Part shown: positions 4,164 to 40,156 of the stretch, piece after piece
Layout: every line of letters begins with the position of its first letter
Numbering within the stretch: the first letter of the stretch is position 1
Assembly: GCA_043783625.1 (NCBI GenBank)
Contig: JAYVZE010000179.1
Location: 527 to 64,526 of the forward strand
Direction: 5' to 3'
Length of the DNA: 64,000 nt
From: Blastocatellia bacterium
GTDB lineage: Bacteria > Acidobacteriota > Blastocatellia > RBC074
Position numbers and translations under genes: made by a program
Notes under the pieces: model-generated
Seen by the model: only the letters and a program-made list of their open reading frames with translations
Told to the model about the DNA's origin: nothing
Databases searched by the model: none

Positions 4164-4640
4164 GCGGATTTTCAGTTTTGACTGTTTCTGCGTTTACGAA
4201 CATGACATTAATCATGGCAACAAAACTCCGAAACTGGTTGTCATCAAATGACTTATTCGAGTTGGGAAATTGAAATGTCAACAGGAACTGGTAATTGGCT
4301 CAGCTTTATAGGTGTTATAGTCGTCGAGCCATCAAACTCGGCGTCACTTGTAAAATGCTGAAACACGGTTAAGCATAACGAATCACTGATCTTATAGCTT
4401 GACAAGGCACACCAGAACAATTACATTCGATTTTTCTTATCTTGATGTAGGATGTAATTAGCTGATGCTGCGCAAAGTACACGTTTTACCTGCCTCTCTG
4501 TCGGTTCGAGCCTCCATTGTTGCTCTGCTTACTGACTTTCCATTTTATCTTTAGGATTCGGGGCTAATTGACTGGCAATTTAGACGCCTTCGGGGGTAAG
4601 ATACGTGTTGCGATTTGGAGTCGCTGCTTTGTATTAACAA

Positions 4641-5510
4641 ATGGAAATTGTTTTAGCCGAAAGTCTGGGGTTTTGTATGGGCGTCAAGCGCGCCGTCGAC
4701 CTCGCTTATCGTGCGCTTGAAAAATCCAATGGATTACCTGTTGTCACGCTCGGTCCGATTATTCATAATGCGCAGGAAATTGAGCGGCTTGAATCCGATG
4801 GAATTCGGTTGGCAAGTGAAGATACTCATCCCAGCGAAGGCATCGCAATTATTCGGGCGCACGGAGCCGCTCCACAGGTTTATGAAAAGCTGAAAGCCAG
4901 TGGAATGCGAATTATGGATGGTACCTGCCCGTACGTTCATTATTCGCAGCGCAAGGCTATTGAGTTATTTGAAGCAGGCTACGAGGTGGTGATTGTGGGT
5001 GATCGTCAGCATCCTGAAATCCTTGGAATTCTCGGCTATATTAACGATCAGGCTCACGTCGTGAAAACGATTGAAGAAGCCCAGGAATTGCCCTTAATGG
5101 AACGTGCCGGGGTGCTGGCGCAGACGACGATTAGTCCACAGAAATATCAGGCAATCATTGATGTTATTCGGAAAAAAGCCCAAGAGGTGAAGCTTGCAGA
5201 GACCATCTGTGACGCGACCGAAGAAAATCAATCTGCCATTCGTCGGCTGGCGGCGGAAGTTGATTATATTTACGTTATCGGCGGCAAGCATAGTGCCAAC
5301 AGTAATAAACTGGTGGAGGCCGCTAAAAATTTATGTCCACAAGCGACTTTAATTGAAACCGAGAATGAGATCAATCCTGCTGACTTACGCGGAGTCAAGC
5401 GTGTTGGCGTTAGTGCCGGAGCTTCGACGCCCGATTGGATGATTCAACGAGTTGTCAGGCGGCTACAATCTCTCGAAACGGAATTAGAGTCGGAGTTAGC
5501 GTTAGGCTAG
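4641..5510 (+). CDS. ispH: 4-hydroxy-3-methylbut-2-enyl diphosphate reductase IspH/LytB
   Basis: 289 aa with N-terminal MEIVLAESLGFCMGVKRAV. Conserved Cys ligands and overall LytB collinearity. Confidence 0.85.
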   Translation: MEIVLAESLGFCMGVKRAVDLAYRALEKSNGLPVVTLGPIIHNAQEIERLESDGIRLASEDTHPSEGIAIIRAHGAAPQVYEKLKASGMRIMDGTCPYVHYSQRKAIELFEAGYEVVIVGDRQHPEILGILGYINDQAHVVKTIEEAQELPLMERAGVLAQTTISPQKYQAIIDVIRKKAQEVKLAETICDATEENQSAIRRLAAEVDYIYVIGGKHSANSNKLVEAAKNLCPQATLIETENEINPADLRGVKRVGVSAGASTPDWMIQRVVRRLQSLETELESELALG

Positions 5511-5569: not shown

Positions 5570-7441
5570 TTGTTTGCAAATTTGCGATTTGAGGCAGGCG
5601 CCTCAAATCTTTTTGGAGGAATCCTTTTTTCAATGTCAACCGAAACCAATAACCAATTAGCTTCCAGCGGTGCAGCGGAAGCTTTAGAACCAACCCAAAC
5701 TGTTACGCCCGATGCTCCAGATGCCGATGATTATGGCGATGTAGATTTTGGCGCAATACTCGACCAACACGAAAAACAAAGCCAACTGGAAGTCAGTGAA
5801 GGTGAAGTCGTCAAGGGAACCGTCGTGAAAATTACCGGTCAGGACGTCATCATTAATGTCGGCTTCAAATCAGAAGGCATTGTTCGCATCAGCGAATTTA
5901 AAGACGGCGATGAAGTTTCCATCAAAGTCGGCGACGAAGTTGATGTGCTGGTCAAGCAACTGGAAAACCATGACGGCTATGTCGAGCTTTCGCGTGCGGA
6001 TGCTGTGCGGATGCAAACGTGGGATTTGATCGAAAACGCTCATCGAGACAATGTCACGATCATTGGTCGCGTCACGGATCGAATCAAAGGCGGCTTGCGT
6101 GTGGACATCGGTGGTATTCAGGCGTTTCTGCCTGGCAGCCAGGTAGATGTTCGTCCCGTTCGTAATCTGGATATTTATCGCAACAAGGATATGGAATTCC
6201 TTGTCTTGAAGGTCAATAAAAAGCGCAGCAATATTGTACTTTCGCGCAAAGCCTTGCTGGATGCTCAAATCGCCGGTAAGAAAGACGAAACTCTCAAACA
6301 TCTTGAAGAGGGAATTATCGTCGAAGGCGAAGTTAAAAATATTACTGAATACGGTATCTTTATTGACCTTGGTGGTCTGGATGGACTGCTGCATATCACG
6401 GATATGTCGTGGGGACGGATTCAGAATCCTTCGGAGCTGTTCAAGGTCGGCGATAAGATTCAGGTCAAGATTCTCAAGTTTGATCGTGACCGTGAGCGCG
6501 TCAGTTTAGGCTACAAACAACTGATCCCTGATCCGTGGGCCACTGTCACCGAACGCTACGCCATTGGCACGCGCGTTTCCGGTAAAGTCGTTTCGCTCAC
6601 CGATTATGGTGCTTTTGTTGAGCTTGAAAACGGTGTCGAAGGACTCGTTCATGTTTCTGAAATGAGCTGGTCGAAGCGTGTCAAGCATCCTTCCAAGATG
6701 CTCAATACCGGGCAAGACATCGAAGCTGTTGTTCTTGAAATTGATACCAATAATCGTCGTATCAGCCTCGGTATCAAACAGATTGAAATCAATCCGTGGG
6801 ATACGTTGCAGGAACGTTATGCGGTCGGAACTCGTGTCACTGGCAAGGTTCGTAACCTAACTGATTTCGGAGCTTTCGTCGAAATTGAAGAGGGCATTGA
6901 TGGATTAGTCCATGTCTCGGATATTTCGTGGACGAAGCGCATCAAGCATCCTTCCGAAGCTCTCAAGAAAAATCAGGAAGTCGAAGCGATCATCACGGCT
7001 ATTGATACTGAAAGCCGTCGTTTGTCGCTCTCAATCAAAGACCTTGAGCCGAATTCCTGGGATCGTTTCTTTGAAGAGAAGAAGCTGGGTGATGTTGTCT
7101 CCGGTAAGATTTCACGCTTTGCTAACTTCGGTGCGTTCGTTGAATTAGACGACGGTATCGAAGGGCTCTGTCACGTCTCTGAACTTTCAGAAAATCATGT
7201 TGAGAAGCCTGAAGATGCAGTCCAGGTTGGACAGAGTCTGCAATTCAAGATTCTCAAAATGGATCCTGAAGCCAAGAAAATCGGTCTTTCCGTTCGTGCA
7301 GTTGGAAAAGATGAACCCATTATTGACGTTCGCAGCTACACCACGAGTGACAGCGGAATGGCAAGTCTGGGTGACCTTTTTGACTTCAACCGTCCGGCTG
7401 AGGCTGAAGCGTCTGAAGATGGCGGCGAAACGAAAGAGTAG
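5570..7441 (+). CDS. rpsA: 30S ribosomal protein S1 (multiple S1 domains); true start is probably the ATG at 5633, preceded by GGAGG
   Basis: Repeated S1 domain signatures (GxV.G.V..I..fGaFV.l..g..GL.HvSe). GGAGGA lies at 5615-5620, upstream of the ATG at 5633. Confidence 0.9.
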   Translation: MFANLRFEAGASNLFGGILFSMSTETNNQLASSGAAEALEPTQTVTPDAPDADDYGDVDFGAILDQHEKQSQLEVSEGEVVKGTVVKITGQDVIINVGFKSEGIVRISEFKDGDEVSIKVGDEVDVLVKQLENHDGYVELSRADAVRMQTWDLIENAHRDNVTIIGRVTDRIKGGLRVDIGGIQAFLPGSQVDVRPVRNLDIYRNKDMEFLVLKVNKKRSNIVLSRKALLDAQIAGKKDETLKHLEEGIIVEGEVKNITEYGIFIDLGGLDGLLHITDMSWGRIQNPSELFKVGDKIQVKILKFDRDRERVSLGYKQLIPDPWATVTERYAIGTRVSGKVVSLTDYGAFVELENGVEGLVHVSEMSWSKRVKHPSKMLNTGQDIEAVVLEIDTNNRRISLGIKQIEINPWDTLQERYAVGTRVTGKVRNLTDFGAFVEIEEGIDGLVHVSDISWTKRIKHPSEALKKNQEVEAIITAIDTESRRLSLSIKDLEPNSWDRFFEEKKLGDVVSGKISRFANFGAFVELDDGIEGLCHVSELSENHVEKPEDAVQVGQSLQFKILKMDPEAKKIGLSVRAVGKDEPIIDVRSYTTSDSGMASLGDLFDFNRPAEAEASEDGGETKE

Positions 7442-11885: not shown

Positions 11886-12250
11886 TCGCTGTTCCTTTCA
11901 AATCCATAGTCTCTTTCGACTCTACAGATGCGGAGTTTGAATGACCGATACCAGATTTCATAACCTTTTTGTTGCGCCACTTTGTGCTCAGCTTGTTGAT
12001 GCCAATGGCGAATCGCCTCTTCGCTTTCCCAATATGAAACTGTGATGCCTAAACCCTCACGGGCGGATTCTACGCCCAGAAATCCAGGCATGGTCGCAGC
12101 GAGTTCAACCATCCGATCTGCCATCGCGCCGTAGCCATTTTCGCCTTCGGTGCGCAGGCTTGAGAAGATCACCGCGTAGTAAGGAGGTTCAGGAGTTTTT
12201 GCCAGCATAATTTTATGAACAGGCGTTCGCCTTTTTTCGCTTTTTATCAA
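11882..12250 (-). CDS. Antibiotic biosynthesis monooxygenase (ABM/Dabb) domain protein
   Basis: 122 aa. ABM-like ferredoxin-fold sequence. 4-nt overlap with the methyltransferase gene. Confidence 0.5.
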   Translation of the reverse strand: MIKSEKRRTPVHKIMLAKTPEPPYYAVIFSSLRTEGENGYGAMADRMVELAATMPGFLGVESAREGLGITVSYWESEEAIRHWHQQAEHKVAQQKGYEIWYRSFKLRICRVERDYGFERNSE

Positions 12251-12935
12251 CCGGAGTCAGTTGATTTCCCTGCAACTGATACGTGGTCGTTTCAATGTTC
12301 AGGCTGTTGTCGGTTTCGTCTGCCACACAGCGTTCGACCTCAAGTTTTCCATCAACAATATTTGATTTAATAATGCCACCTTTGGCTTTGTCTCCGCCTT
12401 CGTATTCCGTCACGCGCTGAAGCTTACCTTCTTCTATTGCGTACACTAATCCTCTGGAAAATGCTCCTTCGCCGCCAGTCGTGTAAGTCACATTGACAAT
12501 TGCTTCGTCTTTGCCGTCTCCATCCAAATCGCCATAAATTGTCTGAACATTATTATCACTGCCTTTGACAGAGGCATCGCCTAATTTGTAGCTCAATTTT
12601 TTGAAATTAATAGTGCGAATATCAGTCAACGGGGAAGGGCTGGGACTGGGAGAAATCGAAGGAGACGGCGAAGGAGAAATAGCTTCACTTGGTGACGGCG
12701 AAGCTTTTATTCCAGTGTTCGGCACCGAGAGTTTTGCGACTTCGGCTTCGTGGTTACGCAATAAAAAAAAAAGGGTAATCAGCCCCAGCACTACTGCGCC
12801 AATTGTTGAGGCGAACAAGATATTACTGGTGCGATGGCTGCGAATAATGCGCTCAGGATCAACATTCTTATAGCCGCATTTCAAGCAAAACGTTGAAGCT
12901 TCTGGTAGCTCCGTCCCGCATTTCATACAAAACAT
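12213..12935 (-). CDS. Zinc-ribbon membrane protein with an SP-repeat linker
   Basis: N-terminal CxxC...CxxC zinc ribbon, a TM helix, then an SPSPSPSISPSPSPSP low-complexity linker. Confidence 0.45.
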   Translation of the reverse strand: MFCMKCGTELPEASTFCLKCGYKNVDPERIIRSHRTSNILFASTIGAVVLGLITLFFLLRNHEAEVAKLSVPNTGIKASPSPSEAISPSPSPSISPSPSPSPLTDIRTINFKKLSYKLGDASVKGSDNNVQTIYGDLDGDGKDEAIVNVTYTTGGEGAFSRGLVYAIEEGKLQRVTEYEGGDKAKGGIIKSNIVDGKLEVERCVADETDNSLNIETTTYQLQGNQLTPVDKKRKKANACS

Positions 12936-21349: not shown

Positions 21350-21798
21350 TTAGTCTTCGAAAGTTTCGATAGGTGGATGTTTTTGTGCGGCGTAAAGCAC
21401 CTCGCGCAAATTGATTACTTCAGAGCGATTCATTTGTAACGCTTCGACGGTTGCCCTTCCCGTGGCTGTTAATCCGACAATCAAACTTGCGTCTTCATTC
21501 CACGCAAAATGGTCATCCCAGTTTTGTAGACGCGGATGAAATGATGAAATAATGAAGTGATTTTGTTTGTAATCGCATCTGGCGCGAATTCTTTAGTGTA
21601 TTTATGCCCGTTACAACCCTGACATGCAAAAGCAAGATTTTCGGCTGTGGTGGAACCACCGGCAATGCGCGGCTTGATATGTTCGACTGAAAATGGTTGC
21701 GGAGAAAAACGGGCTTGGCTGCGACAATATTCGCAAACTTTTCAGGCGCGTAACTGCACCAGCCGTCGCAATCCAGCCGGAATATATTTGTTAGACAT
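21350..21798 (-). pseudogene. HNH endonuclease gene disrupted by two frameshifts
   Basis: The minus strand reads MSNKYIPAGLRRLVQLRA then stop. A shifted frame gives CEYCRSQARFSPQPFSVEHIKPRIAGGSTTAENLAFACQGCNGHKYTKEF, an HNH motif. A third frame gives AWNEDASLIVGLTATGRATVEALQMNRSEVINLREVL. No intact ORF of 60 aa or more is present here. Confidence 0.6.
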
Positions 21799-21803
21799 GA
21801 TGA

Positions 21804-22199
21804 TTACGCGTAGTCAGGGAATTCAATCCCTAATTGTTCCATCACCACTGTCAACGTGACGCCACGCAATTGAGCTAATTGAGCTAGTGATTTCATCCGT
21901 TTGACATGTAAGGCTTCAAGACGTTGCTGCAAGATCAACAATTCCTGATATTCATCAGCGGTGAGCGTTTCTTCTGTTCGCTTTTCACCTAATTCTACGA
22001 GCCTCTTTCGTTCTACTTGAGATAATGATTGATTGATCGTAGCAAAGAGTGCCGATTCGTCAGCCTTGAGTATTGGCGCATGGCGACGCGCACGAAAGGC
22101 TGTCACTTCATCAGCGAAACGATCTAGTTCCGCGAGGCTTAATTGCTCAATGACTTGCGAGAGCTGTGGATTTGAGATTTGCTGAATATTTTGCGCCAT
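21804..22199 (-). CDS. Hypothetical coiled-coil protein downstream of rtcB
   Basis: 131 aa, no recognisable motif. It occupies the position where rtcA often sits. Confidence 0.4.
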   Translation of the reverse strand: MAQNIQQISNPQLSQVIEQLSLAELDRFADEVTAFRARRHAPILKADESALFATINQSLSQVERKRLVELGEKRTEETLTADEYQELLILQQRLEALHVKRMKSLAQLAQLRGVTLTVVMEQLGIEFPDYA

Positions 22200-22301
22200 A
22201 AGAAGTTTCTCCTTATCGCTGGCATGCTCTCATGCACAGGGAGCACAAATCAATAACGTTTCAAAAACAATGACGAATTTGATTGATCCGCGCTGATTCT
22301 T

Positions 22302-23531
22302 TTATCCCTTCACACACACCACCTGCTTCAACGTATGCGCAATTTCCACCAAATCATGTTGCGCATTCATCACCGCTTCGATGTCTTTGTACGCCGCCGG
22401 AGTTTCGTCAATCACGTCTTCGTCCTTTCGGCATTCAACGCCTTCGGTAGCTTTCGCGTGATCCGCTGTAGTGAATCTGCGCTTGGCTTCGTTGCGCGAC
22501 ATCGCACGACCTGCGCCGTGGCTGCACGAATTGAAGCTTTCGGGATTTCCAAGTCCGCGCACGATGTATGAACGTGCGCCCATCGAACCGGGAATAATCC
22601 CGTAATCGCCGAGCGCGGCACGTACTGCGCCTTTGCGCGTCACCAGCACTTCTTCGCCGTAATGCGTTTCGCGGGCGACGTAGTTGTGATGGCAATTGAC
22701 GACTTGCAATTCGGCTTTGAATGGCTTCACTTCGCCGCTGTCCGTGATGGCGTCAATTAATTGTTCCATCATCAGCTTGCGGTTGTACATCGCAAAATCC
22801 TGCGCCCAACTGACGGCGTGAACGTAATCATCGAAATGCTCCGTGCCTTCGTTGAAGTACGCGAGGTCTTTGTCAGGCAAATTCGCAATATGATTTCGCA
22901 TATCGTTTTTCGCCATTTCAATGAAGAACGTGCCGATGCGATTGCCTACGCCGCGTGATCCGCTGTGCAACATGAACCAGACTTTATCGGATTCATCGAG
23001 GCAGACTTCAATAAAATGATTTCCACTACCAAGCGTACCCAGGTGATTGATCGTATTGCCACGATCCAGCTTCGGAAATTTTTCGCAAATTTCTCTGTAG
23101 CCAATTTCCAACTGCGCCCATACACCTTTTTGACGTTTCGGGATTTCTCCCCATCCGCCCTTATCGCGCCGTCCACCGTGATCGGTACGCCCGTGCGGAA
23201 TCGCTTGTTCAATCGCCTTACGAATCTTGCGGAGGTTGTCCGGCAAATCATTTGCGGTCAATGAAGTCTGTATTGCGGCGAGTCCACAGCCAATATCAAC
23301 ACCAACAGAAGCTGGGATAATCGCAGCCTTCGTTGCAATCACGCTGCCGATAGTGGCTCCAATTCCGAGATGTACGTCTGGCATTGCGGCTACCCATTTG
23401 AAAACAATCGGTAGCTTGGCGATATTTTGCAGTTGACGTTTTGCTTCATCTTCCATCTTGACGCCTTTTGTCCAGGCTTTGATGGGAACGCTGTTGGTTG
23501 TTTCGATGAGGTTGTATGTTGTGTTTGCCAT
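22302..23531 (-). CDS. rtcB: RNA-splicing ligase RtcB (3'-phosphate/5'-hydroxyl RNA ligase)
   Basis: 409 aa. MPDVHLGIGATIGSV, GVDIGCG and NSCSHGAGR motifs. Normal length, no intein. Confidence 0.9.
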   Translation of the reverse strand: MANTTYNLIETTNSVPIKAWTKGVKMEDEAKRQLQNIAKLPIVFKWVAAMPDVHLGIGATIGSVIATKAAIIPASVGVDIGCGLAAIQTSLTANDLPDNLRKIRKAIEQAIPHGRTDHGGRRDKGGWGEIPKRQKGVWAQLEIGYREICEKFPKLDRGNTINHLGTLGSGNHFIEVCLDESDKVWFMLHSGSRGVGNRIGTFFIEMAKNDMRNHIANLPDKDLAYFNEGTEHFDDYVHAVSWAQDFAMYNRKLMMEQLIDAITDSGEVKPFKAELQVVNCHHNYVARETHYGEEVLVTRKGAVRAALGDYGIIPGSMGARSYIVRGLGNPESFNSCSHGAGRAMSRNEAKRRFTTADHAKATEGVECRKDEDVIDETPAAYKDIEAVMNAQHDLVEIAHTLKQVVCVKG

Positions 23532-23547
23532 ATTTTTGTACTTCTAG

Positions 23548-24321
23548 CTAACCATTCCGTAGCCGCCATAATCTCAGGCTGATACTTTTTTCGCTACGAC
23601 CAAGCACTGTCATTGATTCCTTGATTAAATGACTAAGAATGAACGAGTCTTCTTCAGAAGACCAAAATTTTCGATTATCAATTTTTTTCATTGAATGAGG
23701 TCTGACCCATTCAGTCACTTGTCTGGCTTTCTCAATTTTTCGAGGTAATCCAAGACACCCTTTGTAATACATTGACGCCGTGAGAACTTGAGCATCTTCT
23801 TTGTAAACAGCTACGTTATAGACACCATCTCTAATGTTCCTTGAAGTGGTTTTTAATTTGCCCGTAACTTCTTCAATAAAACTGATGAAGCCTTTAGCCA
23901 GTGCCGTGCTATCGGTTGTGAGTGATAAGAACGGAAATCCATTTGCAGTTAAGCCCAAAGCACCATCTGCATCAATTATCCCACGATAATAATCAAGCTT
24001 AGAGAAGTTAACTTGTGGTGGAGCGATTACACTGGACTTTTGCCCTTCTGGCATTCCAAGCGCAATAAGCTGTTGGCGAAACTCAAAGCTATAAACTGTC
24101 CATTGTGCTGACTTATAAGCATCCTTAAAGTTCGTCTTTCTCGTTCGCTCCGTGACGGATGAGAAATAAGGAATCAGCTCTGCAAACTTTTCTAGGAGAC
24201 ATTTATCCTGCCAGCCAAGTTCAATTGCTAACGATCCTTTCTGTCCTTTGATTCGACGTAAGTGACCATCGGCTTGGATAAAGCCGAAAAGATACGCATA
24301 TTGAGGGCTGCTCAAGTTCAT
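23548..24321 (-). CDS. Free-standing double-motif LAGLIDADG homing endonuclease
   Basis: Two LAGLIDADG motifs, YLFGFIQADGHL and YYRGIIDADGAL. 257 aa. Stop lies 16 nt upstream of the rtcB start. Confidence 0.8.
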   Translation of the reverse strand: MNLSSPQYAYLFGFIQADGHLRRIKGQKGSLAIELGWQDKCLLEKFAELIPYFSSVTERTRKTNFKDAYKSAQWTVYSFEFRQQLIALGMPEGQKSSVIAPPQVNFSKLDYYRGIIDADGALGLTANGFPFLSLTTDSTALAKGFISFIEEVTGKLKTTSRNIRDGVYNVAVYKEDAQVLTASMYYKGCLGLPRKIEKARQVTEWVRPHSMKKIDNRKFWSSEEDSFILSHLIKESMTVLGRSEKSISLRLWRLRNG

Positions 24322-24364
24322 GTGATTTATTTAGAAATCGGAAGCGCGACAGGGCTGCGAGAAA

Positions 24365-25294
24365 TCATAATATTTCTGCCGTATAGTCTTCGTCAATTTC
24401 TTCTGCAATCTCTCTGAGGTCATCAATATGCTTTTTTATGAAGAATATGAAAATCTCTGCGTCTTCGTTATTGAGCTTCGATGTACTCGGTGATGAGAAA
24501 TATTCCTTTAGCGCGTTAAGCGGATACAAAATACGGCGAACCTCATATTCAACGGTATCATGAGCCTCAAGTATCCCTCGCCTAGTCATCTCATCTCTGA
24601 ACTTTGTTAGTACATTAGAAATAAGCTCAACGTGCATTCCTCCATATTCTGTGAGTGTATCCTTCCCAATACTTTCATAAATTTTCTCGAAGTAGTAACC
24701 CAAGGTTTGCGGGAAAATATGAGCGAGCTTCACTTCTCTATATGTTTGACGGTGTTCCATTTCCTCTTCCTTTAGTTTCTCTATTACATTCTTGAGTGTC
24801 GCGTTTAAGATTTCAGTTTGAGATTTAATCAACTCCAGCACGTCAACCGTAATATACTTGTTAGTGCCATCTGAATAATTGGTCATCAAGTCGAATGTTG
24901 TGTGACTCATGGAAATCCTAGATATGAAATTAAAGGATTTGTCCTTGCCTCGTTTTGTCGGATGCCCAACAGAATTATTTCTGATTTCTCGAATCTCATT
25001 TAGTTTTTCATCTGGCGTATACGGAATAGTTAACGCTTCAGCAAGATGCTCGACGGCATCTTGCTGAACGAACAAAACTTGGAGGATACCGTAAAGGATC
25101 AAGTACTTTTTGCCATGATCGTCAGGTTCTTCACTCTCTTCATACGCTCTTACAGCAAGTGTCGTATCGCCAATTACATCAAGCGAGCTGCACAACTTAC
25201 TCCATCTAGCTGTATTTTGTAGCAGTATGTGCTGTTTTCTTGGGTTATTAATCAAATCGCGTATTTGCGACTCTAATTCATGCGTATTACTCAT
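24365..25294 (-). CDS. Uncharacterised protein with an HEPN-like Rx5H motif (possible RNase/Abi-like effector)
   Basis: 309 aa. REIRNNSVGHPT fits R-x(4-6)-H. Sits between the Y-RNA region and the LAGLIDADG/rtcB genes on the same strand. Confidence 0.4.
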   Translation of the reverse strand: MSNTHELESQIRDLINNPRKQHILLQNTARWSKLCSSLDVIGDTTLAVRAYEESEEPDDHGKKYLILYGILQVLFVQQDAVEHLAEALTIPYTPDEKLNEIREIRNNSVGHPTKRGKDKSFNFISRISMSHTTFDLMTNYSDGTNKYITVDVLELIKSQTEILNATLKNVIEKLKEEEMEHRQTYREVKLAHIFPQTLGYYFEKIYESIGKDTLTEYGGMHVELISNVLTKFRDEMTRRGILEAHDTVEYEVRRILYPLNALKEYFSSPSTSKLNNEDAEIFIFFIKKHIDDLREIAEEIDEDYTAEIL

Positions 25295-25794
25295 AAATAA
25301 TTTTATTAGACTCGAACCGACAACCGTCTTGCGACGTACAGATAGTTTGGAAAACGCGATTCCCTTGCTTGTTTTTCCCCGCCTGAAAAATCAGGCCGCT
25401 ATAGGTTCTGCCTCAACCTCTATCCGTGACCGCCACACAATCGTTTTTGGTGCGCCTCTTCCTTTTCGGCGACGCGAGCGTATTGTCATCGTTTTAGATA
25501 ATTCATCAATCTTTTTTTCAAACGGCAGGCATTCAGCCTCCCTTGTTTTCAAGCCCCGAAGTGGGCGAGATACAATAGCCCAGGGCATCGCCCTGGGTGA
25601 ATGATACCGTGAGCCACAAGCCCTGCAAGGGCGAGATACCAATCAATTATTTCGCCCATTCAGGGCTTGCAAAATATTTATTGTGCTTCCCAGGGCGATG
25701 CCCTGGGCTATTGCATCCCGCTCTTTCAGAGCTTTAAGGCGACACTTCTACGCAATGAAAATATTTCAATCATTCCCTAAAAATAATGGTCGCG

Positions 25795-26017
25795 CTGTGA
25801 TCCGTCGTAACGTCCGGCGCGCAGGCAACAGTTTTTGAAACCGACGATTCGAACCGCAGGGACAAGGATCATTACGACCGAGTTTTTCGAGTAGCTCTTT
25901 GTCGCCGTGAACGATGCGGATGCCGCGTTTGACGTTGGTTTCAGAAGGGAATCCCCGTCTGCGTTTGCTGGTTCGTTCGCTGAAAAAAGGATTCGTCGAA
26001 ATTAGTTATTCTTGCCA
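25795..26017 (-). pseudogene. Small SEC-C metal-binding motif ORF, apparently frameshifted
   Basis: One frame gives [16 protein letters not shown] +1 shift continues [10 protein letters not shown]. Together these match the SecA C-terminal motif [19 protein letters not shown]. The ATG at 26017 opens a third frame that stops after 25 codons. Confidence 0.35.
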
Positions 26018-26100
26018 TATCAACCTCAATTTTTTGTGTGTCGCGCAGAACGAACTATATTCAGAGTTCGCGCTCTTGCGTGTTTCATTTGTAGCGTGAA

Positions 26101-26123
26101 GTAAAACCACGCTGAAGCGTGAA
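26101..26123 (-). terminator. Intrinsic terminator/attenuator after the Y-RNA region
   Basis: Minus-sense TTCACGCTTCAGCGTGGTTTTAC: a CACGC/GCGTG stem followed by a T-run. Confidence 0.45.
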
Positions 26124-26195
26124 CTCCGAACGCCTGATTTTCAAAGAATTCAATTAACACGGCGACAAGGATTTGAGAAACGTTTTTTGAGCTAT

Positions 26196-26267
26196 TGCTG
26201 TTACCAGCAAGCGGAAATTGAATCCGCAACCTTCCGTATCGCTACGGACGCTCTACCATGTAGTTCC
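26196..26267 (-). ncRNA. tRNA-like 3' module (D-loop-like, anticodon-like stem, T-arm, acceptor-like hairpin closed by GTAA)
   Basis: Minus-sense GGAACTACATGGTAGAGCGTCCGTAGCGATACGGAAGGTTGCGGATTCAATTTCCGCTTGCTGGTAACAGCAA. T-arm GCGGA-TTCAATT-TCCGC. Acceptor-like stem TTGCTG-GTAA-CAGCAA. Confidence 0.5.
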
Positions 26268-26388
26268 TCTGGCATTCGCCGATGGATGAGTTTCGAGTTT
26301 TGGGTTTTGAGTTTCGCGGTACATTCCTCGAAACCTAAAACTTGAAACTCGAAACAAATTTAATGACGACAAGTGAGTGTGAAACGTT

Positions 26389-26452
26389 GTTGTTGCTCTA
26401 TCTCCTGAGCTACTGCGCTTTCACGCAGGCAGGGATTCGCACCCTGCGACCC
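26389..26452 (-). ncRNA. Y-RNA (YrlA-like) tRNA-mimic module 2: circularly permuted T-arm/acceptor/D-arm
   Basis: Minus-sense GGGTCGCAGGGTGCGAATCCCTGCCTGCGTGAAAGCGCAGTAGCTCAGGAGATAGAGC. T-arm, then acceptor stem CTGCGT/GCGCAG closed by a GAAA loop, then D-arm GCTC-AGGAGATA-GAGC. Flanked by long GTTTCGAG-unit hairpins. Confidence 0.6.
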
Positions 26453-26589
26453 ACAAGTTAGATGTAGTTCCACTAGCATTCGTCACTAAGATAGTTTCGA
26501 GTTTCGAGTTTTGGGTTTCGAGGTGCTCTCCCCGAAACGCAAAACTCGAAACTAAATTTTTACGACGACAAGAAGTGATGAAACGTTTT

Positions 26590-26655
26590 CGCGCTCTACT
26601 ACTGAGCTACTGCCCCATAAGTTTGGTGGAGCAGGCGGGATTCGCACCCGCGACC
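26590..26655 (-). ncRNA. Y-RNA (YrlA-like) tRNA-mimic module 1: circularly permuted T-arm/acceptor/D-arm
   Basis: Minus-sense GGTCGCGGGTGCGAATCCCGCCTGCTCCACCAAACTTATGGGGCAGTAGCTCAGTAGTAGAGC. 3' acceptor strand CTGCTCC-A-CCA pairs with the downstream GGGGCAG (G3-U wobble). D-arm GCTC-AGTAGTA-GAGC follows. Confidence 0.6.
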
Positions 26656-26761
26656 TAGTCATTGAAAGATGTAGTTCCATCGGGCATTCGTCGTAAGTTA
26701 GTTAAAAGTGATGAGCAATGAGTGATGAGTTTTTTCTCAAAACTCGGAGCTATTTTTTATG

Positions 26762-26827
26762 GCGACAAAATCGGTGAGAGTTCTCCCCCGTAAATGGAGG
26801 AGGCGGGGGTCGAACCCGCTATAACCA
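26762..26827 (-). ncRNA. Y-RNA-like tRNA-mimic module 0: T-arm plus a loop-closed acceptor stem, degenerate D-arm
   Basis: Minus-sense GCGGGTTCGACCCCCGC CTCCTCC A TTTAC GGGGGAG. The acceptor strands pair (G3-U) across a 6-nt loop. Confidence 0.45.
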
Positions 26828-26942
26828 ATGTACTCCCAACCAGCATTCGCCAGGATGTAAAGTCTATCGAGTCTGTTGAGTCCATAGAGTCTGGCGAGTC
26901 ACTTGTCGTGACGACTCCAAAGACTCTACGGACTCTAAGACT

Positions 26943-28496
26943 TCATAGACTCACATTTTCAATCACGCCGATCCAATGATCTGCGCCGATTTTTCCGCTG
27001 GCGAATTCGGCAATGACTTCAAAAACCTGATCGGAAAATCCGCCAATGTTCATGATGTCGGTGCTTTCTTTCGCCTGCGTAGTTCCGTACGGTTGAATGT
27101 CAATGCATACCATTTTGGCGTTAGCATTACGCGCTTTGAACTGCTTCCATTCTTCCATCGTCTGCGTTGCGCCGTAGCGTTTTGAATCTACCCACGATTC
27201 GTTATCCGAAACGTAGATGATTAAATCTCCGCTGGCTTTGCGTTTGTTCAGTGCTGCCAACGGTGCGCTGCAATTGGTTCCACCTGAAGGCAGGTTCGCC
27301 AATTTCTGTGCATTCGTCATCACACTGTCACGCGGATTCAACGTAGCTTTCACCACTTCGTCCGAGAACGGAATGACTTCAGCATTTGGATTTTTGCGCA
27401 GGATCGCAGCAGCTACGAGAGCAGCTACGTCAATGCAACGAACCTTGCTGGTTGCGCCTTTGCGATGACCAGTCACGGGGGATTGCATCGAGCCTGACAC
27501 GTCAGGGCAAACATAAATTTTGCCGTTGAATTCAGGCACGTTGCTGATGGAAATTTCCATCGCATCCTGCAATGCTTCACGCACGACAGCAGGAACGTCT
27601 TCACTGGCGTTTGTGTACGCCGTCATTAACTGATACGGGAACACGCGAGCTTTTTTAATGGCGTGAGAATCACGTAAGCGATTCGCAATCAATTCAGGCA
27701 TTCCGTCCTGCGAGAAAACGTCGTGACGCAGAAACGTATTCAGATTCATGCGCGTCATTTGCCACGGTGCGGTTCGCGCAATTGCAGCCCATTCGTATTT
27801 GCTGAGTTCAAGCGAAGTCAACATTTGGAATGGCACATTCGGAATTTCCGCACGATCCCCCTGTTTGAATTTTTCGTAAGTTTTCACCAGCGCAGGCAAT
27901 TCGTCAGCGTTGATGTCGCGTCCGATGAAATATCCAAATAATGCCTCACGGCTTTTGCTGTTGGGCGTTGGATGAATCATCTTCACAATGTCAGCGAACG
28001 AAGGCGCAGCTCCGATGGAAGCTTTGAAAACAGCTTCGTCATCGCGTGAAGCGAACCATTCGCGGATCAAACGTTTTGGTGCAGAGCCGAGCGATTTACG
28101 ACCAACCACACCAGAGCGCAAAATTTGCACAAAGGTGCGCAGCATTTTCCCGCTATCAATGACACGTGGAAAAATTGCTTCGAGTAACTTCACGTCACGC
28201 ATGGCGAGGATGGCGCACAGCAACGCGGGCATATCTTTCATGAAGCCGCGCTGACGCGCAAAAATTGCCGTTTGCGCAATGAATTTCGGTTCAAGTTCCT
28301 GACAAAGCGCAATCACTTTGGCAAGCTGTTCTTCGGCCTCGGCGTAAAAAGTCGAATTCAAACACCCGGTCGCAGCGTACTGCGCGAGCATCTGTTTGGG
28401 CGTGAAGGTGTATGCCTGACCGCACGCTTCGTTGACAGTATCGGTTTTCGGCAGTAACTTACCGATGATTGAAGTAAACAAATTCTTGTTTGCCAT
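26943..28496 (-). CDS. rsr: Ro60-related protein Rsr (TROVE domain plus C-terminal vWA with MIDAS)
   Basis: 517 aa. C-terminal vWA with MIDAS DxSxS (VCPDVSGSM). Helical TROVE-size N-terminal region. Located next to tRNA-like Y-RNA modules, rtcB and rtcR. Confidence 0.7.
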   Translation of the reverse strand: MANKNLFTSIIGKLLPKTDTVNEACGQAYTFTPKQMLAQYAATGCLNSTFYAEAEEQLAKVIALCQELEPKFIAQTAIFARQRGFMKDMPALLCAILAMRDVKLLEAIFPRVIDSGKMLRTFVQILRSGVVGRKSLGSAPKRLIREWFASRDDEAVFKASIGAAPSFADIVKMIHPTPNSKSREALFGYFIGRDINADELPALVKTYEKFKQGDRAEIPNVPFQMLTSLELSKYEWAAIARTAPWQMTRMNLNTFLRHDVFSQDGMPELIANRLRDSHAIKKARVFPYQLMTAYTNASEDVPAVVREALQDAMEISISNVPEFNGKIYVCPDVSGSMQSPVTGHRKGATSKVRCIDVAALVAAAILRKNPNAEVIPFSDEVVKATLNPRDSVMTNAQKLANLPSGGTNCSAPLAALNKRKASGDLIIYVSDNESWVDSKRYGATQTMEEWKQFKARNANAKMVCIDIQPYGTTQAKESTDIMNIGGFSDQVFEVIAEFASGKIGADHWIGVIENVSL

Positions 28497-28583
28497 AACG
28501 TGTAAATCTCCTCTTCGGACAATATTTGCCAGGACAATTTTTTAAGGAATTTCCCGGCTTGTTCATTCCGACGCTGTTAGTAA

Positions 28584-28600
28584 TGCGAGAGCCGTGCCAG
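28584..28600 (-). promoter_or_regulatory. Sigma54 (-24/-12) promoter driving rsr and the downstream operon
   Basis: Minus-sense CTGGCACGGCTCTCGCA, which is TGGCAC-N5-TCGCA with GG-N10-GC spacing. Lies about 85 nt upstream of the rsr start. The RtcR activator is encoded nearby. Confidence 0.6.
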
Positions 28601-28792
28601 AATGATTCTGAATGGATTTGATAACGGTAAAGCATTGATAAAAAACAGGATGAGGATAAATAGCGGATTTGCACAGTAAAAACTCTAAGCGTGAAATTGA
28701 TTTTAAAAGATAAGAAATTAGATTATATTCTAAGGCTGAACGATGCGATGAATTATGATTCGTGTTCAGTATAGATTTGAAAGGAACCCCGC

Positions 28793-30253
28793 ATGACTAA
28801 TTTCAACTGGCTTCTGGATGGAAGCATCGTCGGCGTCTATTTGTTGATTACGATGATCGCCGGACTTTGGGTGCGTAAGTACGTTGGCAAGGTCGAACAT
28901 TTTTTGGTCGCCGGACGTGAGATGGATTTATTTCTTGGCATCGCATCGCTGGCAGCTACGGAGTTCGGCATCGTGACTTGTATGTACACGGCGCAGAACG
29001 GCTACAAATTTGGTTTTGCCGGAGCGACTCCCGGAATCCTGATGGCGGCTGCGATGTTGATTGTCGGGCTGACGGGGTTTTGCATTAAGCCGTTACGCGA
29101 TTCGGGCGTGATGACTTTGCCGGAATTGATTGATAAAAAATTCGGGCCGAATATTCGCTGGGCGGCGGGAGTCGTGATCGTTCTCGGCGGCTTGTTGAAT
29201 ATGGGAGTTTTCCTGCGCGTCGGTGGGCAGTTTCTGGTTTTAGTCGCGGGAATGGACGTTCGATATTTAGAAGTGATGATGACGGCGTTGTTGATTGGCG
29301 TGGCAGTCTACACAATCCTCGGCGGAATGCTGTCAGTTTTGGTGACGGACTTCCTGCAATTCATTGTGATGAGTGCCGGATTGATTGCGGTGACGGTTTT
29401 AATTTTGGTCAATGTCGGATGGGAAAAATTGGTGACGACAGTTGAAGTCAATTACGGCGCGGCGGGCTTCAATCCATTTATCAATCCTGAAATGGGATGG
29501 GGCTATGTGGTCTTCAATGCGTTGCTGAATACGGCAGCGGTGTTGACGTGGCAGACAACCATTGCGCGGGTGTTGGCGGCGAAAAATACGGAGACCGGAC
29601 GAAAAATTTATACGCGGACAAGTTTCTTTTTTGTCTGCCGATTTTTGATCCCGGGTATTTGGGGAATCGCGGCGCTGGCGGCTTTGGGGCCGCAGGTTGA
29701 TTCGCTCGAAGCGATGCCGAAATATCTGGCAGTGGCGGTTCCGGCGGGCTTGATGGGATTGCTCGTAGCGGCCATGTTGGCGGCGGATATGTCCACGGAT
29801 TCCTCTTATATGTTGTCGTGGGGAAGCGTGATTTATAACGATATTATGGCTCCATTTCACAAGGGGCAATGGTCAGAGAAAAAGGGTTTGCTGATTAACC
29901 GTTTCATCGTCGCCATCATCGGCGTTTTCCTGCTGATTTACGGATTATGGTACAAGCTGGAAGGCGGCTTGTGGGATTATCTGACGTTGACGGGAACAAT
30001 TTATCTGGCGAGTATTTCGGTTTTGCTCATTGCGTGTTGTTACTGGGATCGTGCGAATAGCTGGGGCGCGGCGGCGGCGATTGTGGTCAGTGCGGTTATT
30101 CCGGTGGCATATTTGGTGATGGAAAAAATGGACAGTACCAAAGCCTTTACGAAAAGTGTCGGCCCGCATTATTCAGGCATCGCAGCCTTTGCTGGTGCGG
30201 CTCTGGCGATGATCATCGGATCATTAATCAAACCGCAGGCACAGAAAAATTAA
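28793..30253 (+). CDS. Sodium:solute symporter family (SSF) transporter
   Basis: 486 aa, about 13 TM segments. SSF-like motifs (GREMDLFLGIASLAATEFG). Confidence 0.7.
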   Translation: MTNFNWLLDGSIVGVYLLITMIAGLWVRKYVGKVEHFLVAGREMDLFLGIASLAATEFGIVTCMYTAQNGYKFGFAGATPGILMAAAMLIVGLTGFCIKPLRDSGVMTLPELIDKKFGPNIRWAAGVVIVLGGLLNMGVFLRVGGQFLVLVAGMDVRYLEVMMTALLIGVAVYTILGGMLSVLVTDFLQFIVMSAGLIAVTVLILVNVGWEKLVTTVEVNYGAAGFNPFINPEMGWGYVVFNALLNTAAVLTWQTTIARVLAAKNTETGRKIYTRTSFFFVCRFLIPGIWGIAALAALGPQVDSLEAMPKYLAVAVPAGLMGLLVAAMLAADMSTDSSYMLSWGSVIYNDIMAPFHKGQWSEKKGLLINRFIVAIIGVFLLIYGLWYKLEGGLWDYLTLTGTIYLASISVLLIACCYWDRANSWGAAAAIVVSAVIPVAYLVMEKMDSTKAFTKSVGPHYSGIAAFAGAALAMIIGSLIKPQAQKN

Positions 30254-30264
30254 GGAGGATCATC

Positions 30265-30414
30265 ATGGGAAATCATTGGTTTTGGTTTTTATTGACGATG
30301 GCTTGTGTCATCTGGTATTCGACCGTCACCGTGTATGTGGCGATCAAAGGCGCAGCCGATATTAAAGGGATGCTGGCAAGATTGTCGGAAAATTACGGCG
30401 AAGATAAGGAATAA
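30265..30414 (+). CDS. Small membrane protein (49 aa), possible symporter-associated small subunit
   Basis: ATG lies 9 nt after the symporter stop, preceded by AAGGAGG. Encodes MGNHWFWFLLTMACVIWYSTVTVYVAIKG, a single TM helix. Below the ORF-track size cutoff. Confidence 0.35.
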   Translation: MGNHWFWFLLTMACVIWYSTVTVYVAIKGAADIKGMLARLSENYGEDKE

Positions 30415-30427
30415 ATATTTTCCGTCA

Positions 30428-30637
30428 TCGTCGCAGCACGACGTCTGAATTTAGCCGTGTGGTTTCAACCCACGGTAACGCGGTGTTTAGATTTTCCGTC
30501 GCGTCAGCGACGATTGAAAGAAATATTAATTTCAGCCGTCGCTGACGCGACGAAAAAATAAAATGTAAACGTCTACCGTGGGTTAAAACGCCACGGCTAA
30601 AGTCAGGCGTCGCGCTGCGACGGGGAATGAAAACACC
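30428..30637. repeat. Nested inverted-repeat (MITE-like) element upstream of rtcR
   Basis: Outer imperfect inverted repeat of about 50 bp (TCGTCGCAGCACGACGTCTGAATTTAGCCGTGTGGTTTCAACCCACGGTA and its partner). Inner perfect inverted repeat CGTCGCGTCAGCGACG/CGTCGCTGACGCGACG followed by an A-run. Confidence 0.55.
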
Positions 30638-30663
30638 CACTCAATAGACTTCACTTTTTTCTC

Positions 30664-32265
30664 ATGCCGCAAAAACGAACAGTAGTTTTTGGAATCCTCG
30701 GAATTAAAAAAGATTCCGGCAAAGGTGTTGCACGCCGGGAGAAATGGCGTCCGACAATTGCGCTTTGTTCGCACGAAGATTTGCTCATCCATCGCTTTGA
30801 ATTATTAACCCAGCCGACCCATCACGAATTAGCCAAACAAATTATCGCTGACATCAAAGACGTTTCTCCTGAAACTGAGATCAAGACGCATCTGGTACAA
30901 TTTGATGACGCATGGGACTTTGAAGAAGTCTACGGGCAATTACACGATTTTTTCCGTAATTATTCCTTCAAGCCGGACAAGGAAGATTATCTGGTGCATC
31001 TTTCGACGGGGACGCATACACTTCAGATTTGCCTGTTTTTATTAACTGAATCGCGTCATTTGCCCGGACAATTGATTCAAACTTCACCGCCGAAATATCG
31101 TCGCGGAAAGGTGAGTGATCCGGGCACGTACAACATTATTGATTTGGATTTATCGAAGTACGGCTTACTGACTTCGCGCTTTCAGCAGGAGCAAAAAGAA
31201 GCGACTTCGTTTTTGAAATCCGGCATCGAAACGCGCAACAAACAATTCAATAAATTAATTGCCCGCATCGAACAGGTAGCGATTGCTTCACGCGATCCGC
31301 TGTTATTAATGGGGCCGACGGGAGCAGGAAAATCACGATTGGCGAAACGTATCTTCGCCCTAAAAAAAGCCAGACATCAGATGAGCGGAAATTTTGTCGA
31401 AGTGAATTGCGCGACGATTCGCGGCGACGGTGCAATGTCAGCTTTGTTCGGGCATATCAAGGGCGCGTTCACGGGTGCGATCAATCCACGTGACGGTCAT
31501 CTTCGTGCGGCGAATAATGGCGTTCTATTTTTAGATGAAATCGGCGAGCTGGGATTAGACGAACAGGCGATGTTGCTGCGTGCGCTGGAAGACAAAGTAT
31601 TTCTGCCACTCGGCTCCGACAAAGAAGTCAAAAGCGAATTTCAATTAATTGCCGGAACCAACCGCGATTTATCGGAACGCGTAAGCAGCGGAAAATTCCG
31701 CGATGATCTGTTGGCGCGAATAAATTTATGGACATTTAGCTTGCCATCCTTGCGCGAACGCAAAGAAGACATCGAACCGAATTTGCAATTTGAACTGGAT
31801 CAATTCGCCGAACGCAACGGGACGCGGGTGACGTTCAGCCGCGAAGCTTTGAATCATTTTGTAAAATTCGCAACGTCGAACGAAGCCAGTTGGAACGGGA
31901 ATTTTCGTGATTTAAATGGCGCGATTATTCGGATGGCGACATTCGCCGAAAGCGGCAGAATTTCAGTGGAAGTTGTGAACGAAGAAATTGAACGGCTTCG
32001 TGCTGCGTGGCAAAATTCCAGCGCGACGTTTGGCGAAGGTTTGGAAAATTTATTGGATGAAAATGTGATTGCGGAACTAGATTTATTTGATCGAATGCAG
32101 CTCCTGAAGGTGATTGAAATTTGTCGTGAATCGCGTTCGCTTTCTGAAGCCGGACGCAAACTGTTTCATTCTTCCCGTGAACAGAAAAAAACTGCCAACG
32201 ATGCAGATCGGTTGCGAAAATATTTGATGAGATTTGGATTGCGTTGGGAAGGAATTAAAGAATAG
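30664..32265 (+). CDS. rtcR: Sigma54-dependent transcriptional activator RtcR (N-terminal CARF-like domain, AAA+ sigma54-interaction domain, C-terminal HTH)
   Basis: 533 aa (E. coli RtcR is 532 aa). Walker A GPTGAGKS, GAFTGA motif, Walker B FLDEIGEL. The N-terminal 180-aa non-receiver domain is consistent with CARF. Confidence 0.75.
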   Translation: MPQKRTVVFGILGIKKDSGKGVARREKWRPTIALCSHEDLLIHRFELLTQPTHHELAKQIIADIKDVSPETEIKTHLVQFDDAWDFEEVYGQLHDFFRNYSFKPDKEDYLVHLSTGTHTLQICLFLLTESRHLPGQLIQTSPPKYRRGKVSDPGTYNIIDLDLSKYGLLTSRFQQEQKEATSFLKSGIETRNKQFNKLIARIEQVAIASRDPLLLMGPTGAGKSRLAKRIFALKKARHQMSGNFVEVNCATIRGDGAMSALFGHIKGAFTGAINPRDGHLRAANNGVLFLDEIGELGLDEQAMLLRALEDKVFLPLGSDKEVKSEFQLIAGTNRDLSERVSSGKFRDDLLARINLWTFSLPSLRERKEDIEPNLQFELDQFAERNGTRVTFSREALNHFVKFATSNEASWNGNFRDLNGAIIRMATFAESGRISVEVVNEEIERLRAAWQNSSATFGEGLENLLDENVIAELDLFDRMQLLKVIEICRESRSLSEAGRKLFHSSREQKKTANDADRLRKYLMRFGLRWEGIKE

Positions 32266-36283: not shown

Positions 36284-36623
36284 GTGACAAAAAATGTCTG
36301 TCATCTTTTGGAGACACTAGGATAGATCAAAAAGCCAGCCAAGGCCGGTTGTGATTGTTATTTGTATAAATAAGTGCTTTATTTATAAATATTTATGTGT
36401 TGTTGGGCAAGTGTTACGGATTTGTGGCACGGTCATTGCACTACCTATAGCGCAGACGAGAGATGAAGAAGATAAAAAAGACGATCTTTGATTATTAATC
36501 TTTAGAAATTCTTTCGTAGCAGGGAAGGCGTTCTTGACGCGCAAATCCTCCTCACACCTAATAAACACCTCACCTGGTTATTAGTTGGATTTGAGGCTCG
36601 GAACGCTTCCCGGCTATTTTCTG

Positions 36624-40076: not shown

Positions 40077-40156
<80 letters not shown>

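Follow-up and report, generated by a model that had tools for sequence, protein, structure and literature searches.

A probable RtcR/sigma54-controlled RNA-repair operon of Blastocatellia with a variable gene slot upstream of rtcB

The repair genes and their regulator

Operons that combine Rsr, Y RNAs and the RNA ligase RtcB under the control of the activator RtcR are already known. Here we describe a locus of this kind in a stretch of 64,000 nucleotides (nt) from a Blastocatellia bacterium (GenBank assembly GCA_043783625.1, contig JAYVZE010000179.1, positions 527 to 64,526), hereafter the window, and examine the genes that lie between its structured RNAs and rtcB. Features are on the minus strand unless a plus sign is given, and loci of other genomes are designated by L numbers, with coordinates of their own. 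The minus-strand string starts at a sigma54-type promoter and runs through rsr, YrlA-like Y RNAs, rtcB, a gene for a protein of 131 amino acids (aa) and a dead HNH gene. The gene list of an initial annotation, made from the sequence alone, was essentially right.

The 517-aa product of rsr (26943-28496) is an orthologue of Ro60 in which a TROVE domain (Pfam, 32.5 bits; cut-off 23) is followed by a vWA_Ro60 domain (81.2 bits; cut-off 27.7). The initial annotation had staked its reading on the TROVE domain, and the domain is present. Since the NCBIfam Rsr equivalog gives only 82 bits against a cut-off of 900, we regard the protein as a divergent orthologue; it is 65-89% identical to Blastocatellia proteins labelled 'RNA-binding protein / TROVE'. 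The rtcB gene (22302-23531) is intact and holds neither intein nor intron. Its product matches the Pfam RtcB family at 437 bits over profile positions 1-426, carries the metal-binding motif GSGNHFIE and is 78-94% identical to the RtcB proteins of relatives.

The regulator gene rtcR (30664-32265, plus strand) lies about 2 kb from the operon, as initially proposed. It encodes a sigma54 activator with a CARF-type RtcR N-terminal domain, an AAA+ domain and a lid, and is recognised by NCBIfam RNA_repair_RtcR (NF038308; 796.9 bits, equivalog cut-off 650), by Pfam RtcR (256 bits) and Sigma54_activat (159 bits), and by the PADLOC profile RtcR--CARF_AAA_HTH (836 bits). Between rtcR and rsr stands a sodium:solute symporter gene (28793-30253, plus strand; Pfam SSF, 105 bits) that is outside the repair system. 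The same arrangement occurs in L086 and L193, and rtcR is directly beside rsr in L088, L090, L091 and L103. In the close relatives L087 (6641-9601) and L192 (4669-7629) the gene upstream of rsr is not rtcR and encodes a sigma54 activator of 986 aa that contains TPRs; in these two genomes the operon regulator has a swapped sensor domain.

An element resembling the -24/-12 pattern TGGCAC-N5-TTGCW, TGGCACggctcTCGCA, is located at 28584-28599, 88 nt upstream of the rsr ATG. The pattern has two matches in the window against 0.24 expected; the second exact match, TGGCACggtcaTTGCA at 36425-36440 (plus strand), is outside the locus. The four closest relatives examined (L086, L087, L088 and L090) retain a sigma54-type element 77-149 nt upstream of rsr, in agreement with the promoter initially placed there, and TGGCACggctcTCGCA would by its sequence and position act as a sigma54 promoter. 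The absence of rtcA was borne out as well: tblastn with RtcA from L096 as query gave no match in the whole window. RtcA is present in the relatives L090 and L096.

Structured RNAs and a small SEC-C gene downstream of rsr

The initial annotation assigned about 1.6 kb to structured noncoding RNA. Four permuted tRNA-like Y-RNA modules are indeed found, but the interval is not all RNA: the Y-RNA array occupies only 26156-26853, and the remainder consists of a small SEC-C gene, a REPIN-like element and a 3'-truncated tRNA-like RNA. The four tandem YrlA-like Y RNAs (26756-26853, 26559-26694, 26360-26486 and 26156-26282) score 26.2, 58.8, 61.1 and 35.4 bits with Rfam YrlA (RF02553), at E-values of 7e-3 to 5e-13 that hold for a search space of 1.8 kb. 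All four miss the gathering score of 69, the two best modules reaching E-values of 5e-13 (61.1 bits) and 2e-12 (58.8 bits). The array shows the YrlA architecture, in which a GNCGAA closing stem and an internal T-arm are combined with a closed acceptor-like stem and a D-arm, and it adjoins rsr, all four modules lying within 0.8 kb on the 3' side of that gene. Modules 2 and 3 align to the YrlA model with ACGACGAAUGC, the T-arm and the D-arm GUAGCUCA..UAGAGC. The permuted tRNA appearance is a known trait of YrlA RNAs (PMC4201824). Relatives carry two to four modules.

The spacers between modules at 26283-26359 and 26487-26558 form hairpins with z-scores of -5.9 and -7.8, possible processing sites of a polycistronic Y-RNA precursor. 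These hairpins are long, near-perfect and rich in CGAAAC repeats, and draw spurious microRNA matches in Rfam.

A small gene at 25777-26018 encodes a SEC-C motif in a peptide of 79 aa that has to be stitched across two frameshifts, both +1 and both located at TTT-C (the TTT triplets occupy 25983-25985 and 25838-25840). The peptide is spread over three frames identically in seven of seven clade loci, and third codon positions account for 41 of the 48 variable columns of the middle segment (frame +1) and for 15 of the 18 of the last segment (frame +2). Once stitched, the protein displays a complete SEC-C motif (33.7 bits) and is 71-83% identical to contiguous SEC-C proteins of 55-127 aa in other phyla. 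The gene is found in relatives at L086 ~6380-6609, L088 12141-12330, L090 12806-13044, L091 ~12220-12458, L094 3882-4111 and L103 ~5720-5952. A frame change that is conserved, flanked on both sides by coding-type variation and matched by contiguous homologues elsewhere makes this gene a candidate for double programmed +1 ribosomal frameshifting. The second site appears well supported, and the first, more tentative shift is suggested only by a conserved frame-0 ATG with a Shine-Dalgarno sequence and by inconsistent start codons in frame +1.

Programmed +1 frameshifts are rare in bacteria. The SEC-C sites share with the prfB type a +1 shift at a defined short motif, a P-site tRNA that can re-pair (UUU to UUC, here ahead of a Gln or Pro codon) and conservation across diverged loci. 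Unlike the prfB type, they have neither an in-frame stop codon nor an obvious upstream Shine-Dalgarno stimulator, and two sites fall within 80 codons.

Next to this gene is a REPIN/MITE-like element (25545-25740), a near-perfect hairpin of 196 nt (-116 kcal/mol, z = -12.5) built from two inverted Acido-Lenti-1 motifs of Rfam. One (25689-25733, plus strand) exceeds the gathering score of 37 with 42.1 bits, and the other (25552-25597, minus strand) reaches 34.6 bits. No counterpart was found by blastn in L086, L087, L088, L090, L091 or L103. Genes for Y1-type (RAYT-like) transposases are close to the operon in L086, L087 and L193.

Comparison with relatives uncovered a conserved tRNA-like RNA beside rtcB that is 196 nt long when intact and is cut in the T-loop in the window (25310-25485). 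It is 94% identical to its counterpart in L086 and 92% to that in L087, a conservation above that of rsr. Intact copies are located at L086 7101-7295, L087 12371-12567, L090 13069-13266, L091 12674-12871, L104 4365-4559 and L191 3671-3866. With a covariance model of this RNA (R1), they score 207-229 bits and the window copy 164 bits. In relatives the RNA comprises a 7-bp acceptor stem, a D-like arm, a large internal domain, a hairpin with compensatory changes and a perfect T-arm (GUCGG-UUCGAGU-CCGAC), and some copies encode the CCA. Covariation is thin, with four compensated pairs among five sequences, and 93% of cells are paired as against 32-45% in slid controls. Searches yielded no Rfam family match, and ARAGORN does not call the RNA a tRNA. 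The only tRNA gene of the window is a tRNA-Asn gene at 40082-40156.

In the window the RNA stops at ...GGTTCGAGTC and is directly joined to the AT-rich leader of the next gene, which encodes a 309-aa protein. The missing 3' piece, CGACCGCGAG, is found nowhere in the window, and the last ~12 nt of the RNA appear to have been removed by insertion of a cassette. A fragment in L087 breaks at the same point of the T-loop, and L193 has a split copy with breaks at two other points. We therefore rejected site-specific integration at a single att core in the T-loop: the RNA is cut at different positions across genomes, which makes a single attachment site unlikely. A search for the RNA in viruses also came to nothing, as the 19 contigs returned by a 16-mer scan were chance matches, none of which fitted the covariance model.

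Genes inserted upstream of rtcB

The 309-aa gene (24365-25294) starts 15 nt after the clipped RNA and is co-oriented with the operon. The protein belongs to a large, uncharacterised, stand-alone family with 518 close homologues, no Pfam domain being found among the matches listed. At 50% identity the family has 2489 representatives, members are ~310 aa long, and its range covers many bacterial phyla and some archaea. Longer members (P0251, P0261 and P0379) were considered for an additional domain, but their extra part holds no Pfam domain. The residues R102, R105, H111 and D79 are invariant, and in 40 family members the string R105-N-[ND]-S-[IV]-G-H111 varies little or not at all. In an AlphaFold2 model of high confidence (predicted local distance difference test score, pLDDT, 90.7), R105-N-x4-H111 is placed at the end of a short helix (96-106) that is preceded by a long helical hairpin and followed by a three-strand insert and a long helix.

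The initial annotation called this a HEPN-motif protein. According to the published description, the HEPN motif (Rx4-6H) ends helix 3 with a polar residue after the arginine, an acidic residue is in helix 2 and inserts are tolerated (PMC3710099); the motif and the predicted model agree with this layout. The motif itself stands as an invariant Rx5H. HEPN homology of the family could not be demonstrated by sequence, profile or fold searches, which speaks against the initial HEPN assignment, and by our own estimate about one in ten proteins would carry a motif of the form R[NDH]x3-5H by chance. Like HEPN RNases such as AbiV, Swt1-like and DUF4145 proteins (Anantharaman 2013, PMC3710099), the 309-aa protein has an Rx5H with N after R at a helix end, an acidic residue in the preceding long helix and a stand-alone, island-type gene. 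Unlike the known HEPN families, it has a three-strand sheet insert, a large additional C-terminal helical domain and no detectable profile or fold similarity to them. We put its chance of being a HEPN-type RNase at about one half, and consider it a candidate metal-independent RNase of that type or another defence or toxin enzyme.

The genomic context of the family points to acquired cargo. Neither rsr, rtcB, rtcR nor a LAGLIDADG gene was found within 10 kb of family members elsewhere (0 of 85 loci from many phyla), where toxin-antitoxin genes and integrases are typical neighbours. No conserved partner emerged, a shared neighbour being present in at most 4 of 80 loci. The idea of a cassette riding on tRNA-targeting elements was likewise rejected, since a T-loop-like sequence was upstream in 0 of 79 loci and a tRNA was within 2 kb in 6 of 80. 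Both the 309-aa gene and the LAGLIDADG gene that follows it are absent from 83 related rsr loci, and their G+C contents of 39% and 41% compare with 50-51% for rsr and rtcB.

The second inserted gene (23548-24321) encodes a free-standing, two-motif LAGLIDADG homing endonuclease of 257 aa with a C-terminal Myb/SANT-like helix-turn-helix (HTH) domain. The gene stands 16 nt upstream of rtcB and is not enclosed in an intron, and its product matches Pfam LAGLIDADG_3 (37.5 bits) and a PHROG endonuclease family (E 6e-18). In annotated collections the proteins nearest to it come from Bacillus phages; they are homing endonucleases that share 51-53% identity with it across 99% of the length and whose genes lie between open reading frames labelled "RtcB N terminus" and "RtcB C terminus". 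There the gene resides in a group I intron (Rfam Intron_gpI, 71 bits; gathering score 50) that interrupts the rtcB codons of a conserved motif at GGG|NHFIE (L170 3230-5555). Two acidic motifs (FGFIQADGH and RGIIDADGA), together with relatives that inhabit introns or inteins of one particular host gene, are the marks expected of a LAGLIDADG homing endonuclease, and by these marks the gene appears to be a selfish element that tracks rtcB. The lineage is tied to rtcB as its homing target, so its position beside rtcB requires no role in RNA repair. The phage endonucleases (Bacillus phages BSP36, 278BB001 and Goe17/20/27) share with it full-length identity, the C-terminal HTH and the tie to rtcB; in the phages the gene is inside an intron that splits rtcB, whereas the window has a free-standing copy ahead of an uninterrupted rtcB.

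At codons ~166-175 the resident RtcB has GSGNHFIE in place of the GTGNHFIE of relatives, a change that adjoins the phage intron site and may reflect target-site immunity, although it is a lead only. The rtcB gene attracts selfish elements, as illustrated by the phage group I intron and by an intein in L102, where rtcB (2992-5205) carries an HNH-type intein after GVDIGC. One might suppose that domestication has turned the LAGLIDADG protein into, for instance, a regulator or a maturase-like RNA factor for rtcB, and that it is no longer a mobile endonuclease; its free-standing gene, extra HTH and closeness to the rtcB start codon would suit this. However, the acidic residues are retained in both motifs (QADG and DADG), the phage homologues have the same HTH and yet sit in an intron, and the gene is missing from every one of the 83 related rsr loci, so that domestication is highly improbable.

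Beyond rtcB the string ends with two further genes. The 131-aa gene (21804-22199) recurs in related operons: its product is 68% identical to that of the gene directly upstream of rtcA in L096, and L088 has a partial copy. Profile searches of Pfam and NCBIfam gave no family match. The last gene is an HNH endonuclease pseudogene (21353-21797). No intact open reading frame for the domain exists; it becomes recognisable only in a translation stitched across an in-frame TGA and one frameshift (Pfam HNH 44 bits, HNH_5 36 bits), and we therefore classify the gene as a pseudogene, the decayed nuclease that the initial annotation had described. Homologues with 38-40% identity are found inside tRNA arrays adjoining rsr in six other loci. 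In more distant Acidobacteria (L098, L100, L101, L116, L126, L135, L141, L146 and L162, with L090 19534-21527 noted alongside) rsr directly follows tRNA arrays that comprise 26-33 genes. A second type of RtcB (~51% identical) is encoded upstream of rsr in several of these loci.

The variable slot and its interpretation

The position occupied by the two inserted genes is variable in relatives. Across 14 related operons of the clade the content between the tRNA-like RNA and rtcB is different or shuffled, with homology between genomes ending 15-41 nt before the first slot ATG and resuming 4 nt before the rtcB ATG. L086 is syntenic with the window: HSP70-like and M20 peptidase genes flank the operon in both, and the Rsr proteins are 89% identical. 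Its slot genes are different, with one for a 363-aa protein in the slot and a DUF4145 gene after rtcB. The slots hold genes for 127-, 243- and 160-aa proteins in L087, a small open reading frame and an insertion sequence (IS) element in L088, an AbiV gene in L091 and a gene for a 286-aa protein in L104. In L096 the slot comprises DUF5343, a Swt1-type HEPN gene, a gene for a 211-aa protein, a homologue of the 131-aa protein and rtcA, and L190-L193 present further combinations, including a second AbiV (L193). In nine operons the slot genes are all co-oriented with the operon and tightly packed. Of the eight slots for which G+C content was measured, five have 35-43% and three have 51-54%, and some cassette families recur across operons.

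HEPN-clan genes pass the Pfam cut-off in four operons: AbiV in L091 (37.8 bits) and L193 (45.9 bits), the Swt1-type gene in L096 (41.7 bits) and DUF4145 in L086 (40.9 bits). RNxxxH or RDxxxH motifs, or sub-threshold HEPN matches, are present in the 363-aa protein of L086, the 160-aa protein of L087, the 211-aa protein of L096, a 145-aa protein of L192 and a 179-aa protein of L193. Overall, 7 of the 14 operons have at least one Pfam-supported HEPN gene or RNxxxH-type protein, in the slot or just after rtcB.

Another protein, of ~235-255 aa with the N-terminus MSKVVIERPR and a DUF2510-like C-terminus, recurs at L088 17111-17842, L090 15054-15749, L096 4208-4906, L103 7895-8611 and L193 14784-15491. 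Several operons with this protein also have a 2OG-Fe(II) oxygenase and two have a Band_7 protein; all three proteins are absent from the window.

We think it probable that the locus is a conserved RNA-repair operon of a Blastocatellia-type acidobacterium, controlled by RtcR and sigma54, in which a variable slot before rtcB has here been filled horizontally with two unrelated genes, the 309-aa gene and the LAGLIDADG gene. Its order is rsr, four YrlA-like Y RNAs, the small SEC-C gene, the tRNA-like RNA and rtcB, and the slot lies between the last two. RNA ends bearing a 2',3'-cyclic phosphate would activate the CARF domain of RtcR, which would fire the sigma54 promoter, and Rsr, the Y RNAs, the product or products of the slot and RtcB would then be produced together. 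An RNase, if the slot encoded one, would generate the very ends on which RtcB acts as a ligase. If the 309-aa protein is coupled to repair at all, the link is opportunistic and not ancestral.

Several points weigh against this interpretation. The comparison of 14 operons is a small sample, and co-transcription of the string from the sigma54 promoter is presumed. A sigma70-like site at 24367-24396 (TTGACG, 18 nt, TATTAT), at the end of the 309-aa gene and just upstream of the LAGLIDADG gene, could drive the LAGLIDADG gene and rtcB independently of sigma54; it matches at 10 of 12 positions, although promoter-like sites show no overall enrichment. Consensus scans for promoters and terminators produced matches that were not above chance. 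Furthermore, the recurrence of HEPN genes could mean that the slot is functionally dedicated and not just permissive.

The initial annotation saw in the locus an RNA damage and repair conflict module. What stands of this is an Rsr/Y-RNA/RtcB locus with RtcR and a sigma54-type promoter and without rtcA; what falls is the view of the three nuclease genes as a single effector set. The 309-aa family is unlinked to repair in the 85 loci surveyed, the LAGLIDADG gene follows rtcB and the HNH gene is dead. Low G+C content, absence from related rsr loci and an insertion that clipped a conserved tRNA-like RNA likewise argue that the nuclease genes are not one designed set. In the comparison of rsr neighbourhoods that had been proposed as a check, the two inserted genes are missing from the 83 related loci, and bona fide HEPN genes repeatedly occupy the same slot. 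As the slot of relatives repeatedly holds HEPN genes, an RNase beside a ligase under RtcR is a recurring theme, and the idea of RNase plus repair is plausible for the clade, if unproven for the 309-aa gene.

Spelled out in full, the initial proposal makes the 309-aa protein a HEPN RNase wired to the operon: once RtcR is activated, it would cleave tRNA or other RNA into fragments that end in a 2',3'-cyclic phosphate, Rsr and the Y RNAs would handle these fragments and RtcB would reseal them, giving a reversible shut-off of translation for defence or dormancy with recovery built in. The chemistry is suitable, given that cleavage by HEPN RNases yields 5'-OH and 2',3'-cyclic phosphate ends (PMC3710099) and that such ends are the substrate of RtcB and the proposed kind of RtcR ligand (PMC7790460). 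The invariant R-N-x4-H motif and D79, a modelled helix arrangement that fits the HEPN layout, a co-oriented gene that starts directly behind the clipped RNA, and the HEPN-type genes in half of the related operons all lend it support. However, no sequence, profile or fold search ties the family to HEPN, its members elsewhere are not linked to repair genes, motifs of this form are frequent by chance, and the arrival of the gene damaged one of the operon's conserved RNAs. In Salmonella, moreover, deletion of the one HEPN candidate tested left RtcR activation unchanged (PMC9879122), and HEPN and Abi genes are common island cargo anyway, which tells against a fixed coupling. Consequently, we hold this wiring of the 309-aa protein to be unlikely.

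A different possibility is that the slot is merely a permissive insertion hot spot for ordinary mobile defence or toxin cargo, among which HEPN genes are common, with no give-and-take with repair. Cargo that is low in G+C and differs between close relatives, the IS element of L088, a tRNA-like RNA hit at different points in the window, L087 and L193, and a 309-aa family found elsewhere among toxin-antitoxin genes and integrases would all be in keeping with it. Yet the uniform orientation and tight packing of slot genes in nine operons are unexpected of neutral insertion, several cassette families recur, and the share of HEPN-type genes looks high, judged without a matched background; a purely permissive slot thus seems somewhat doubtful to us. 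At the other extreme, a dedicated slot 3' of the tRNA-like RNA and 5' of rtcB would repeatedly capture HEPN-type RNases, so that RNA cutting and sealing would be co-induced as a reversible shut-off and recovery device in defence or dormancy, and the SEC-C gene, translated solely by way of its two UUU-C +1 shifts, could gauge tRNA supply or damage. We regard this scheme as speculative and rather improbable, and favour the conserved operon with a horizontally filled slot.

The operon touches on two questions of the field, what damages RNA and what Y RNAs do. The clade offers natural variants with candidate RNases inside a repair operon, which would make the relationship between nuclease and ligase directly testable. 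Further leads are the conserved, unannotated 196-nt tRNA-like RNA beside rtcB, a small gene with a zinc motif whose expression apparently depends on two programmed +1 frameshifts, and a homing endonuclease lineage that has followed rtcB from phage introns to a bacterial chromosome. The locus is also a warning that adjacent nuclease genes should not be read as one functional module.

Comparison with known systems places these features. A "band 7-associated tRNA" beside rtcB was predicted by Burroughs & Aravind 2016, as summarised in bioRxiv 10.1101/312249, and by analogy the 196-nt RNA may be related to it. As in RtcB systems with tRNA-like cofactor RNAs, a tRNA-like RNA with acceptor stem and T-arm adjoins rtcB, and sometimes rsr too; a Band_7 gene follows rtcB in L087 and L090, as in band 7-associated tRNA systems. 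Unlike these systems, the window has no Band_7 gene, and its RNA is a truncated version of a 196-nt molecule with large internal domains.

The closest known counterpart of the operon as a whole is rsr-yrlBA-rtcBA of Salmonella enterica under RtcR and sigma54 (Chen 2013; Hughes 2020, PMC7790460). Both have a CARF-type RtcR and a sigma54-type promoter, and in both rsr is followed immediately by tRNA-mimicking Y RNAs of the YrlA type and shares its strand with rtcB. The window differs in having four Y RNAs instead of two, no rtcA and a symporter gene between rtcR and rsr, and it adds the small SEC-C gene, the tRNA-like RNA and the variable gene slot before rtcB. The core is consequently a known kind of system, and what is new here is the four-copy Y-RNA array, the frameshifted SEC-C gene, the tRNA-like RNA and the cassette slot before rtcB.

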